From Octopus vulgaris (Eukaryota), in NCBI GenBank assembly GCA_951406725.2, contig OX597819.1, positions 123,876,001 through 123,940,000 on the forward strand: a stretch of 64,000 bases of DNA. Direction: 5' to 3'. This document shows positions 5,761-32,064 of this stretch, one piece after another (position 1 is the stretch's first letter; each line of letters begins with the position of its first letter). The notes under the pieces are model-generated. The model had not been told where the DNA came from and searched no databases. It was given only the letters and a program-made list of their open reading frames with translations. The position numbers and the translations under genes are program-made.

Positions 5761-6333
5761 GTAAAAAAATGGATTTTTTTCTGGTTTGATCTGGTATATA
5801 CTGATTTTTTTCTGGTTTGATCTGGTATATTCTGGTTTTTTCTGGTATATACATATATATATATATATATATATACATATATATATACATATATATATAT
5901 ATACATATATATATACATATATATATATACATATATATATACATATATATATATACATATATATATATATATACATATATATACATATATATATATACAT
6001 ATATACATATATATACATATATATATATACATATATATACATATATATATATATACATATATATATACATATATATATATATACATAAATATATATACAT
6101 AAATATATATATATATATATATATATTTATATATATACAGAAACAGCAATGTAATTATGTACACGCAGGCAGAAGAGTGCATACACACACACGCATACGC
6201 ACACACACGCACGCATGCGCACACACAGAGTATAAACACACATCTGTACATGTGGTGTTCCCCATCTTCTGTGAATTAGAAATCACTTACCATTTCGATT
6301 TTATCCCAACTCCATCTGTACTTTCAGGTCAAT

Positions 6334-6406
6334 ATGATACGACTATTTCCTATTTGCCTGTTGTTTTTGATAGAAGTAACAGTTTCTAAGGAAGCAGATG
6401 GCAGCG
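6334..6406 (+). CDS. First coding exon of a small secreted cysteine-rich protein (signal peptide [24 protein letters not shown])
   Basis: Acceptor ctgtactttcag|G at 6327/6328, ATG at 6334, hydrophobic h-region, donor G|gtaagt at 6406/6407, phase 1. Confidence 0.85.
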
Positions 6407-7329
6407 GTAAGTTTCCACTAAGATATATAAATACTGAATAATCATACATTCCGAAATTGCCTGAACACAAATTCATTTTTCTATTTGATCATTCATTTGT
6501 TTGTGCCTTTAGTTAGTGTTACATTTAGCGATAATTGACTTCCATTATCACAAACGTGTGTGTGTGTGTGTGTGTGTGTGTGTGTGTGTGTGTGTGTGTG
6601 TGTGTGTGTGTGTGTGTGTGTGTGTGTGTGTGTGTGTGTGTGTGTGTGTGTGTGTGTGCGTGTGTGTATGTGTTTGTAAATACATAGACATATTAGAAGG
6701 TTTGGAGATGATGTACAGGTATTTTATACTAGAAGAAATGAGGTACTCAGAAATTCGGATGGTTTTATATTTACAGATATTTATTTGTATATTACATGTT
6801 TTTATACATCATATATCATATATCATATATTAGCGCTTTCGTCCATTCTAGTGGAGTTTTCAAATTGAACTTTAAGAATATATATATATATATATATATA
6901 TATATATAAAAGTACAAAGTGAGATAGGGGTTATGAGTGTAACCCACTATGGGATATCATTTATCCAATATACTGCCAGTAAAGTACCCAGAAGGCTAAT
7001 ACATAAATAGCAGAATGCACATATTCCTTTATTGGTATTATTAATAATAATAATAATATTAATACTTTTTAGTAATGTAATACAATGAACTTTGGACTTT
7101 GTATATGTACACTTTGATGTGGATATATATATGTATATTCCAGTATATAGATCTGATTAACTGTAACCTTATATGTATGTTTATTATTATGTATATACTA
7201 TATATATATGTATATGTAGGTGTATATACACTTATATGTATATGTATATATGTATAAATGCATATTCTTGTATATGTGTACCTTGTTTAATATTCATATT
7301 TATAATTGTACTTTATAATTGTACTTTAT

Positions 7330-7459
7330 AATCCCTGACGAGGCCTTGAGATATATATATATAAGTAACTCATTTTTAACTGCATATTACCTCAATACAT
7401 CTGACTAATATGGGCATAATGAGATACTCTTATCTACAGGCTGAAACAGCTGTAAGATC
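7330..7459 (+). ncRNA. Type I hammerhead ribozyme with long stem II insert
   Basis: ATCC-CTGACGA-GGCCTtgAGATA...TATCTacAGGCT-GAAA-CAGCTG-TA-AGAT; stem I is weak (first pair mismatched). Confidence 0.75.
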
Positions 7460-8022
7460 CATTTTATATGAATTATTCTTATGGTATTATCTTACTTATT
7501 GATGAATATTGTTTTATTCTGTCTTATTCTGTTGGATTTGGATGTTCCTATTTAATCTAAATAATTAGTTAATAAATTATATGAATTGGTATTATCTGGA
7601 AGTTGATGATGGAAAGAAATCTATTCCTCCATTTTCTTATTTTGTATATATGTGTATATATATATACATATATATATATATATATATATATATATATATA
7701 TATATATATATATATATATATATATATATATATATATATATATATATATATATATATATATATATATATATAATATATATATATATATATATATATATAT
7801 ATATATATATATATATATATATATATACATATATATATATATATACATATATATATATATATGTATGTATGTATATATGTATGTATGTATGTATGTATGT
7901 ATGTATGTATGTATGTATGTATGTATGTATGTATGTATGTATGTATGTATGTATGTATGTATACACACACGTACATATTTATATATACGTGTATGTATAA
8001 AGATTGGAGACTGTCAGAATGA

Positions 8023-8080
8023 TATGGCCGCCTCTGATGAGAACCCAAAAAGGTTCGAAAATCAATTAAGGTTGTTCATA
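8023..8080 (+). ncRNA. Compact type I hammerhead ribozyme
   Basis: GCCT-CTGATGA-GAACC caaaaa GGTTC-GAAA-ATCAAT-TA-AGGT; canonical core and perfect 5-bp stem II. Confidence 0.85.
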
Positions 8081-8092
8081 ATTTTTTTCTTA

Positions 8093-8505
8093 GGCGTAGG
8101 AGTGGCTGTGTGGTAAGTAGCTTGCTTACCAACCACATGGTTACGGGTCCAGTCCCACTGCGTGGTACTTTGGGCGAGTGACTTCTACTGTAGCCTCGGG
8201 CCGACCAAAGCCTTGTGAGTGGATTTGGTAGACGCAAACTGAAAGATGCCTTCATATTTATATGTATGTGTGTGTGTGTGTATGTTTGTGTGTCTGTGTT
8301 TGTCCCCCCAACATCGCTTGACAACCGATTCTGGTGTGTTTACGTCCCCATAACTTAGCGGTTCGGCAAAAGTGTCCGATAATATAAGTAGTAGGCTTAC
8401 AAAGTATATGTCCTGGGGTCGCTTTGCTCGACTAAAGGCGGTGCTCCGGCATGGCCACAGTCAAATGACGGAAACAAGTAAAAGAGTAAAAGAGTAAAAA
8501 AAGAG
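8093..8505 (+). mobile_element. tRNA-derived SINE family B (CORE-like), with internal microsatellite and (AAAGAGTA)n tail
   Basis: A box TGGCTGTGTGG and B-box-like segment, CORE-like CCTTGGGCAAGT in most copies; highly similar copies elsewhere in the window. Confidence 0.9.
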
Positions 8506-8991
8506 TATATACATACATATAAGCTCACCTGAATTCCTCTGATAGCCACTCTTTACCACGCGGACTTGATACTCGGTAGAGTTTTCAGAGTGTAACATCC
8601 AATCCCTTGTGCATTACTATGTGTTATATATATTTAGAATCGCTTGATTTCATGTGATGATGCTCCCTCTTTCTCTCACCTTTTCCCTCTCTCTGTATAT
8701 GTATACATACATACATACATACATACATACATACATAATACACACACATACACACATATATATATATATATATATATATATATATATATATATATATATA
8801 TATATATATATATATGTAGATAATACAAATAAGAAAATGGAGAAACAAATTCAGATTGTTCATCATCTTACGGATATTATAGTGCTAGATATTTATTCAT
8901 TTTACAAATGAGAACATCAAAATATTATATAAATCAATAATACAAATACAGACTTTAAAAGTCATATTATAAATTATTGAAATCCAAAAAC

Positions 8992-29911: not shown

Positions 29912-30084
29912 TATCTATAAACAATAACTCCTTACTAGGATGGGCTATGATGTCCATAGAATGACTAATATGAAACATCTTTACAAACGTTTCCCAGGGG
30001 GTCAGCATGTAGCATGAGGCATTATCACAGTTTGCACTTTCTTGTACTTTTTAGTTTTATTTTTACTTTTATTTTATTTACTTT

Positions 30085-30233
30085 TTCCGCTCTGAAGAAC
30101 GTTCCGTGATTCAAATGAGTATAATTAATTACTTACAATGATAACTATTATTATTATTATTATTATTATTATTATTATTATTGCGGTGGTTAAGACTGTG
30201 AATCACGCTAACGGAAACAGCTGTAAGACGAGA
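30085..30233 (+). ncRNA. Type I hammerhead ribozyme with an (ATT)n microsatellite inside loop II
   Basis: CCGCT-CTGAAGA-aCGTTccGTGATTCA...TGAATCACgctAACG-GAAA-CAGCTG-TA-AGACG; base of stem II imperfect. Confidence 0.7.
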
Positions 30234-30725
30234 TTTTGTCTTTTTGTAATTAATTAATCGATGATAATTGATGTGAATCAATTGTTACTCATCAATTTTA
30301 TCTCTATTTTCTGCTTTCCTTGAATATTGACAAACTTTAGTTTATTCTTGTCATTACCTATCTTTTATGAGCATTAATACCGATGCTCATGATTAACTAT
30401 AGGTAATACACCAGTGGATTCATTGGATACAGGTATAACCTCTAACATAACTCACCTGTATATATATAAGAATTCTCCCTGAGCAAATAAATTATCTTTA
30501 TTGCTGAAAAGAAAGAAACTGCAGTCTGAGAATTACCGGTTTAGTAAATGTTTTTATCTTCATTTCACTTAATTTATCAAGCTTCTGTATTCCTAGCACA
30601 TATTTCGCCTTAATGTACTGATATATGAAAAATATATGGCTTGTGTTAGTAATACCAGCGATAATAATTATTTTTATTTTATCGCAATTTGATTTGTTTA
30701 TATATATATATATATATATATATAT

Positions 30726-31341
30726 ATAATGTAAAGTATAGAAGCCATCTTATCATGGCTAACCACATTGGGGAGGGGGTGTTACTGTAGCTTTATAGCC
30801 CCAAGAGATCGTCGTCTCTAGCTGGCTTTAGACACAATATCAGTGCCCTTGGAGTATTTGCAAAGGGAGGCCATCCCTTCCTCGCAAGCCTGAGTGATAC
30901 GCTCGAACTAGTTTCGGGATTTTTGTCCCTCATCAACGGGCGGTAACCACCAGGTCGCGATGAAAGTGAAATAATAATTCCTTGCAAATATATAAGTTTT
31001 TCTAGTGGCATCTGCCACTGATGTCGAAAAACGGACAGTAAGCATGATTAAATCTCAGAATGAGATTGAAACAGTAATCGCTCGATAATGTAAAGTATAG
31101 AAGCCATCTTATCATGGCTAACCACATTGGGGAGGGGGTGTTACTGTAACTTTATAGCCCCAAGAGATCGTCGTCTCCAAGGGCACTGATACTGTGTCTA
31201 AAGCCAGCTAGAGACGACGATCTCTTGGGGCTATAGAGCTACAGTAACACCCCCTCCCCAATGTGGTTAGCTATGATAAGATGGCTTCTATACTTTACAT
31301 TATCGAGCGATTACTGTTTCAATCTCATTCTGAGATTTAAT
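30726..31341. repeat. Direct plus inverted triplication forming a ~295-nt fold-back
   Basis: 31047-31176 pairs with ~31212-31341; 30726-30853 is a third copy; sequence related to the Helitron interior at ~25010-25090. Confidence 0.85.
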
Positions 31342-31703
31342 TATATATATATATATATATATATATATATATATATATATATATATATATTATAATATTA
31401 GGGTAATAAGAATTATAGAAATTATTATTACCAGTGGCCTAGCACAAAAAATAGTCAATAGACTATATATTATTCAAGGAACTAAATTAGATGGTATACG
31501 TTTTTAATTTTCAATCCTTTCGAGAATGTATCTATAATTAGTGGTTTGAGTTTTCTACTGCTCTTTCTAGCACAAGGCTTTCCTATTTGGAATCCTCTTA
31601 ATGTGTTCTAATGTACACGATATTTTTATGTATATATATATATATATATATATATATCTGCAAGCGTATACGAACGCGCGCGTGTATTTTTTTTTTTTTT
31701 CAG

Positions 31704-31746
31704 GGAGATTACCCTGCCCGATAAATCTCAGCAGCTAGCAATCTAA
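31704..31746 (+). CDS. Probable terminal coding exon: EITLPDKSQQLAI-stop
   Basis: Strong acceptor (T)14cag|, phase 2 compatible with exon 3, TAA at 31744-31746, followed by non-repetitive AT-rich UTR-like sequence. Confidence 0.7.
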
Positions 31747-32058
31747 TTCATCGAATTTATAACTTTATCGTTTAACGTCTGCAAATTTGTTACGTTTTAT
31801 AGTGTATTGTAACTAAAATGTACAATTTTATAATTAACAACGCTAGTTAATTTTATTGTGTATCGTAGGATTTCGCTATATGCAACTAATTGCTTTGTAT
31901 ATTTTCACTTGTATAGAACGACTAACTCACCAAACGAAAGGCGAAACCGACGCGAAACCAGTTTACGAAAAACTAAAAGAGGACCAAATGGTCCTACCGA
32001 ACCAACATTTTATAGCCGATGAAACGTTAACCACTGAAACACGTGTAAGAAATAACGT

Positions 32059-32064
32059 AATAAA
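32059..32064 (+). terminator. Candidate polyadenylation signal of the cysteine-rich gene
   Basis: AATAAA ~310 nt after the stop codon, followed ~20 nt later by a GT/T-rich tract. Confidence 0.5.

Follow-up and report, generated by a model that had tools for sequence, protein, structure and literature searches.

A tandem Octopus gene family for predicted-secreted, ten-cysteine proteins with a predicted fold resembling a pair of fibronectin type 1 modules

The stretch of DNA analyzed here (the window) comprises 64,000 nucleotides of the Octopus vulgaris genome (contig OX597819.1, positions 123,876,001 to 123,940,000) and harbors on its forward strand, between positions 6328 and 32064, a gene whose product most likely has 154 residues. 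According to the reading favored here, to which a probability of roughly 60% is assigned, this product is one member of a tandem family of about 16 copies in Octopus, and its predicted-secreted pair of modules resembling fibronectin type 1 modules (FN1, also F1) would serve as a scaffold, locked by disulfides, that binds a fast-changing partner protein. The family is apparently undescribed; it is diversifying, predicted to be secreted and placed on a known fold. At this stage it stands as a promising orphan family and not as a new mechanism.

A search with the exon-3 protein returned as its sole match the RefSeq entry XP_036359380.1 of Octopus sinensis (LOC115212787; P0004 in the following), an "uncharacterized" protein of 154 aa, and 149 of the 151 residues compared are identical between it and the translation of the window. 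The gene is composed as follows (positions are those of the window).

6328 to 6406, forward strand: coding exon 1, with the ATG at 6334, a predicted signal peptide and a phase-1 donor; 22 of 24 residues as in P0004
16174 to 16311, forward strand: exon 2, module 1 with five cysteines; symmetric phase 1-1; 45 of 45 residues as in P0004; 13 copies with splice sites kept
21040 to 21187, forward strand: exon 3, module 2 with five cysteines, an NGT sequon and a net charge of -7; phase 1-2; 48 of 48 residues as in P0004; 16 copies
31917 to 32064, forward strand: most likely the last exon, with a basic tail of 34 residues, a stop codon ending at 32022 and AATAAA at 32059-32064
31704 to 31746, forward strand: the last exon proposed in an earlier note, giving a 133-aa form; in frame but without support; it could at best be an alternative acceptor

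The match of the first three exons to P0004 goes far beyond what chance would give. The gene of the window is thus a true gene, the same as LOC115212787, and automated annotation of a close relative already includes it. The earlier note had called it a hidden gene of four exons, and hidden it is to the open reading frame track only. The coding parts of exons 1 to 3 (6334-6406, 73 nt; 16174-16311, 138 nt; 21040-21187, 148 nt) stand as proposed there, with open frames, AG/GT ends and the phases 1, 1, 2. Because a splice acceptor precedes coding exon 1, an untranslated exon is likely to lie upstream of 6328. Exon 1 displays a hydrophobic peak at residues 7-17. In a hydropathy profile, which is not a SignalP prediction, an early peak of 1.9-3.1 was found within the first 21 residues of all seven proteins (7/7), with values of at most 1.5 beyond residue 28; the product is predicted to be secreted. 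Furthermore, for a contig of 207 nt from a sequencing run (X1), which is RNA only by guess, the alignment starts precisely at 21040 and continues free of mismatches to 21120. The 126 nt before this part lie off the intron, as a spliced transcript would show, and may represent exon 2. Three of four runs gave no coverage of exon 3, a result that carries no weight as evidence.

The last exon is where the earlier proposal did not hold. The 34-residue tail of P0004 is encoded at 31918-32019 with 34 of 34 residues identical, which places the acceptor at 31916/31917. A DNA search with the last-exon region revealed 11 further places on the same contig (C6), and an alignment of the window with seven of these 11 (eight rows) shows the downstream AG (31915-31916) as well as the AATAAA at 32059 in every row. 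The acceptor of the 133-aa form (31703/31704) is a strong poly-T CAG, its frame is open to a clean stop, and an AG at this position is also present in the paralog L029. It is kept, however, in only two of the eight rows, the RefSeq model of P0004 does not use it, and the tail of the O. bimaculoides relative follows the downstream acceptor as well. For the paralog L034, the tail read from the downstream acceptor is almost the same as in P0006, an annotated protein of O. bimaculoides, and the tail of O. bimaculoides P0015 can be aligned to that of P0004. Because of this conservation, and because the RefSeq model and the O. bimaculoides tails follow the downstream acceptor, the main product is most likely the 154-aa and not the 133-aa protein. 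The shorter form would at best be a minor isoform, and that it represents the main product is improbable.

The mature part contains ten cysteines, five per exon (C26, 29, 35, 50, 55, 72, 79, 94, 99 and 117 of the 154-aa product), and the two-module layout with the spacing C-x5/6-C-x6-W-x7-C-x4-C, as described in the earlier note, was found again in exons 2 and 3. The NGT sequon pointed out there is present in exon 3 but is not a family feature, as a sequon of any kind occurs in 6/16 exon-3 copies and at varying positions.

Structurally, the AlphaFold2 model based on a 27-row alignment is all beta, with block means of the predicted local distance difference test (pLDDT) of 94-96 over residues 31-110; the signal peptide and the tail are of low confidence. 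The module of about 45 residues with two plus three antiparallel strands, as known from FN1, is present in the predicted model. Ranks 1-12 of the Foldseek search are all structures of fibronectin F1 modules (best E 8.5e-4; 13-22% identity). In the VIA comparison, F1 structures were matched with a Z of 7.9 and a root-mean-square deviation (rmsd) of 4.1-4.8 over 83-86 aligned residues, where a Z below 8 may, by the tool's own guide, mean merely a common arrangement. In a wide search among 48,161 chains the top two were F1 pairs (Z 6.7 and 5.3), followed by the C4 domain of von Willebrand factor (vWF C4; 4.5) and chicken MSMB3 (4.2). Module 2 folded alone reaches template modeling (TM) scores of up to 0.68 against F1 modules; the match to 2cku (TM 0.67, rmsd 1.8) has an E of 0.54 and is not significant. 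For two members, the top match in the Atlas was a cluster of MIG-18-like Fn1_2 proteins, with TM 0.57 (82 residues) and 0.59 (87 residues), both against predicted models and below the bar for naming. Feature matches in the Atlas all scored under 0.8 and were disregarded. The fold is therefore predicted as all beta and resembling an F1-F1 pair. On sequence level, single exons hit no Pfam family, and no family reached the cut-off with the protein or its relatives (27 alignment rows, 10 full proteins). Pfam fn1 gave no match in the 27 rows (E up to 1) or the 10 full proteins (E up to 10), and PDB sequence searches gave nothing significant, the best E being 0.23 in one, where fibronectin had 0.6, and 1.1 in another.

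FN1 modules contain four cysteines including a CxC motif, which are paired 1-3 and 2-4. With the pairing read from the F1 alignment, the disulfides of the octopus protein would be C26-C35, C29-C55, C50-C79, C72-C99 and C94-C117. Here, C29-C55 and C72-C99 would represent the FN1 1-3 bonds, one per module, C50-C79 would act as a staple between the modules resulting in a rigid rod, and C26-C35 and C94-C117 would cap the ends. The staple is suggested because the cysteine at W+8 is located in the distal turn, close to the hairpin of the following module. It would be comparable to the inter-domain bond C37-C73 of MSMB (PMC3268785). The bond between the first and the last cysteine that the earlier note had considered is unlikely since the predicted fold is an elongated pair, matching F1-F1 pairs end to end.

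Mechanistically, the signal peptide would be cut near residue 18-21. The basic tail is likely dispensable or trimmed, because three of the 16 exon-3 copies end right behind Cys10 and others carry basic clusters behind it (P0004, P0006, P0008 and P0015). Trimming by a furin-type convertase is likely and would leave about 95-100 residues. The partner might then bind along an exposed sheet edge, by analogy with the peptides bound to F1 pairs of fibronectin, and the variable side chains would set the specificity. F1 pairs take up extended peptides as a tandem beta-zipper (PMC3105298). Duplication together with diversifying selection would result in paralogs with different partners.

Searches of the same genome, which follow up the suggestion in the earlier note to look for tandem paralogs, located every copy on contig C6, where exon 3 is present 16 times, exon 2 13 times (resolved copies) and exon 1 11 times. 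These counts are lower bounds; a search with a divergent copy gave no more on this contig. One more exon-2 match (L050) was kept out of the exon-2 counts because the automated scan identified no acceptor for it. Of the exon-3 copies, 13 are situated at 22.15-22.77 Mb and the other three at 123.3-123.95 Mb. Phase and splice sites are preserved in 13 exon-2, 16 exon-3 and 10 exon-1 copies, and the five cysteines are kept in 28 of 29 module exons. The sole loss of a cysteine is seen in L026:1501-1635 (C6:22351321), the near-twin of which, L024, retains it. One exon of the next member lies within the window itself.

63052 to 63127, forward strand: exon for the signal peptide of the tandem paralog that follows; its exons 2-4 likely lie past the end of the window (L018, L004 and L032; C6:123947288-123967131)

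The reading frame in exon 3 of this paralog stops directly after the tenth cysteine.

An exhaustive search with a single sequence among 1.84 billion representatives gave 10 matches, all from Octopus and all uncharacterized. This agrees with the earlier note, and the family appears restricted to the Octopus lineage as far as searched, although a search with one sequence instead of a profile may miss members in squid, cuttlefish and the remaining molluscs. Word-indexed searches are insensitive for this family and returned just P0004, or P0004 and P0014. The relatives in RefSeq are LOC115212787 (the gene of the window) and LOC118763783 of O. sinensis as well as LOC106872057, LOC106872088, LOC128248056/57/60 and LOC128248175 of O. 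bimaculoides, all but the first being further family members. All are unnamed single annotations without a Pfam family. A literature search by seven gene identifiers found no paper naming them, and topic searches likewise gave no description of the family. Identifiers and motifs had no match in the supplements of PMC7693380, PMC10138644, PMC11202624, PMC9712504 and PMC9699675, which were covered in part; other supplements may hold expression data.

In a tree of module 2 (49 columns), several copies of the genome are each joined, with strong support, to a protein of O. bimaculoides (L008/P0011, L007/P0016, L006/P0008 and L003/P0007), and much of the expansion is therefore older than the split from O. 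bimaculoides. L054/L060 belong to the younger pairs. The two clusters on C6 (22.15-22.77 Mb and 123.3-123.97 Mb) are about 100 Mb apart and do not form separate clades in this poorly resolved tree, hinting at a rearrangement that divided one cluster. In the larger cluster, young duplicates are found on opposite strands (L054/L060, L010/L014 and L011/L013). A profile comparison gives a weak similarity between modules 1 and 2 (probability 23%, E 0.0009), which is consistent with an old exon duplication and in line with the exon-duplicated modules of the earlier note. Three annotated isoforms of O. bimaculoides LOC106872057 (P0009, P0010 and P0015) are without exon 2 and have one module with five cysteines; the unpaired cysteine could permit covalent dimers. 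Weak matches on other contigs (L012, L059, L061-L064 and a further one on C9; E 0.6-9.6) were regarded as chance and left out.

The paralogs have diverged strongly, with a median pairwise amino-acid identity of 0.33-0.34. The median pairwise ratio of nonsynonymous to synonymous rates (dN/dS, omega) is 0.97 for exon 2 (78 pairs) and 1.23 for exon 3 (120 pairs), the pairs not being independent. The downstream intron is more conserved (identity 0.67-0.73) than the coding sequence (0.58-0.60; shuffled baseline 0.48-0.54). Codon model M2a was preferred over M1a for exon 3 with a likelihood-ratio test statistic (LRT) of 43.5 and 61% of the sites at an omega of 3.0, and for exon 2 with an LRT of 24.4 and 32% of the sites at an omega of 2.9. 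The highest LRT among 32 simulations of the null model for exon 3 was 3.8. In the five youngest pairs taken together, the proportion of nonsynonymous differences (pN, 0.057) is higher than that of intron differences (0.032; p 0.002). Diversifying selection, more so in module 2, is supported but not cleanly shown.

Several points weigh against the favored reading. The codon model was run with our own code on 44-46 codons without a control for gene conversion. The signal exon, used as a control for which a low omega is expected, gave an omega of 1.38 under M0 and an LRT of 46, and its core columns 1.69 and an LRT of 4.8. Because this low omega was not seen, part of the selection signal may be due to weak constraint or misalignment. 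Furthermore, pN of the five youngest pairs is not above the proportion of synonymous differences (pS, 0.043; p 0.54), with two of the five pairs reversed, and purifying selection is suggested by two older pairs of exon 2, L016/L017 and L017/L018 (pN 0.14-0.17, pS 0.47-0.58). The copy in the window has the only strongly acidic module 2 of the family and may not represent it. Finally, Z values below 8 and an rmsd of 4-5 Å over the module pair support a fold class in the model and no function.

In a different view, the family would consist of weakly constrained, MIG-18-like accessory proteins of the extracellular matrix or of a structural kind, drifting near-neutrally apart from the cysteine framework. 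The fast signal exon and the lack of a significant excess of pN over pS in young pairs would fit, as would the MIG-18-like Fn1_2 proteins being the closest predicted structures; MIG-18 is a secreted cofactor of the basement membrane (PMC4856095). On the contrary, M1a, which allows neutral and conserved sites, was rejected for both modules, and frame and splice sites are intact in each of the 29 resolved module exons, several paralogs having close O. bimaculoides counterparts, which argues against decay. This explanation is considered rather unlikely, and the binding scaffold for a fast-changing partner is preferred.

For such a scaffold, several arenas are conceivable. Reproductive secretions would come first with a little over one chance in three, followed by venom or saliva with one in four, and by antimicrobial or immune functions and by matrix or other functions with one in five each. 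The lean toward reproduction is based on the analogy with MSMB and on genes of the octopod ancestor that peak in male reproductive tissue. MSMB is described as a fast-evolving reproductive protein with ten cysteines, the intron of which is more conserved than the exons (PMC3268785), and for genes dating to the octopod ancestor an expression peak in male reproductive tissue is stated in PMC7656900.

The signal peptide, the fixed cysteines with hypervariable residues in between, the tandem cluster and the exons outpacing the nearby intron are together what toxin families of animals generally show, so that the proteins could also be toxins of the posterior salivary gland with the F1 pair as a scaffold against prey targets. 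Against this stand the missing similarity to any toxin family at the cut-off and, as a weak point, 11 motif and identifier terms without a match in one supplement of an O. vulgaris salivary-gland proteome, a partial file in which the presence of peptide letters was not confirmed. Altogether, a toxin function is a minority option, yet the strongest of the rivals to the favored reading.

Somewhat less probable are antimicrobial or pattern-binding immune effectors of the skin, the hemocytes or the egg coat. The paralogs are mostly net basic, with a charge of at least +2 in 13 of the 16 exon-3 copies, and the fast diversification fits a microbial arms race. In contrast, the gene of the window is acidic in module 2, matches to Defensin_beta are at chance level (best E 0.25), and the 11 terms had no match in the skin-mucus proteome supplement, again a partial file. 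Knowledge of pheromones, seminal proteins and small venom peptides in octopus is scarce. The compact, clustered family provides a ready list of candidates for whichever gland expresses it.

The window contains further elements. On the reverse strand, a 537-codon open frame at 3457-5070 encodes RVT_1 (E 2.5e-6) followed by GIY-YIG (E 1.3e-5), which we take to be the layout of a Penelope-like retroelement. A fragment of a DDE_3 transposase (E 4e-11) lies at 23407-24174, also reverse, within intron 3, and a DUF7083 open frame at 57110-57805 (reverse; E 2.7e-11) is probably part of a mobile element. Arrays resembling short interspersed nuclear elements (SINEs), with a unit of 177-184 bp and two to five copies each, are present at 17469-18308, 25758-26130, 33851-34186, 46971-47900 and 58102-58483; words related to them are very abundant in the sequencing runs examined. 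In intron 1, two tandem repeats with a period of 102 bp (9794-9990 and 10528-10733) are found about 540 bp apart, the consensus units of which look like reverse complements of each other.

In comparison with known systems, the vertebrate F1 pairs (PDB 2rky, 2rl0, 3cal, 3ejh and 2cg6) are closest. They share the tandem module of two plus three strands predicted for the octopus protein, were the best match in all four fold searches, and likewise have the conserved core tryptophan and one module per exon. In contrast to FN1, where the CxC is visible in the 2cg6 alignment, the octopus modules have C-x4-C instead and lack the second disulfide, and additional cysteines are located at W-7, at W+8 and at either end. 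The octopus protein is further a small stand-alone pair, predicted to be secreted, and not part of a mosaic protein. The MIG-18-like FN1 repeat proteins of nematodes (Pfam Fn1_2, PF23003) are secreted invertebrate proteins with FN1-like tandem modules, to which the octopus protein may be similar, but their clusters are 368-382 aa long compared to the 154-aa octopus product. The Fn1_2 profile matched one of the 27 rows at an E of 0.049 and none of the 10 full proteins, which is below the cut-off.

MSMB proteins have the cysteine pattern CxxCxC and CC. Octopus cysteine spacing shows neither, and the layout is a symmetric 5+5 with duplicated modules. The PSP94 profile gave no match in the 27 rows and the 10 full proteins. 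MSMB folds into an N-domain of six strands and a C-domain of four, and only module 1 aligns with chicken MSMB3 (6rwc; Z 4.2, rmsd 1.5, 37 residues). MSMB/PSP94, which includes molluscan members, has in common with the octopus protein the ten cysteines by count and the fast exons; its small, secreted all-beta build of two domains with an inter-domain disulfide (PMC3268785) would correspond to what is predicted for the octopus protein. VWC and SVWC share an FN1-like N-terminal subdomain, as seen for vWF C4 (Z 4.5, rmsd 2.5, 45 aligned). The VWC profile gave a weak match in two of the 27 rows (best E 0.016), the best score being 14.5 bits (P0016) versus a cut-off of 27.6, and SVWC none with the exons, the 27 rows and the 10 full proteins. 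A VWC domain has ten cysteines with CxxCxC and CCxxC, and an SVWC domain eight with a CC pair. The octopus core of ten cysteines lacks CxxCxC and CC. The resemblance to FN1, VWC and beta-microseminoprotein (beta-MSP) without a CxC, as proposed in the earlier note, is thus borne out by the structure comparison, with F1 pairs first and vWF C4 and MSMB3 lower.

It is possible, though doubtful, that the re-stapled fibronectin-finger pair represents a new signaling or toxin scaffold of octopus, with about 16 positively selected paralogs, each of which would hold its own receptor or prey partner on a rigid beta edge. If this is true, its role would be like that of the three-finger proteins in snakes or of the beta-microseminoproteins in vertebrate and squid reproduction. 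An FN1-like fold held by a different set of cysteines is suggested for a mollusc, which bears on the kinship of FN1, VWC and beta-MSP. By their defining cysteine patterns, the family belongs to none of these three, but it would work like a small disulfide-rich binder of that type.

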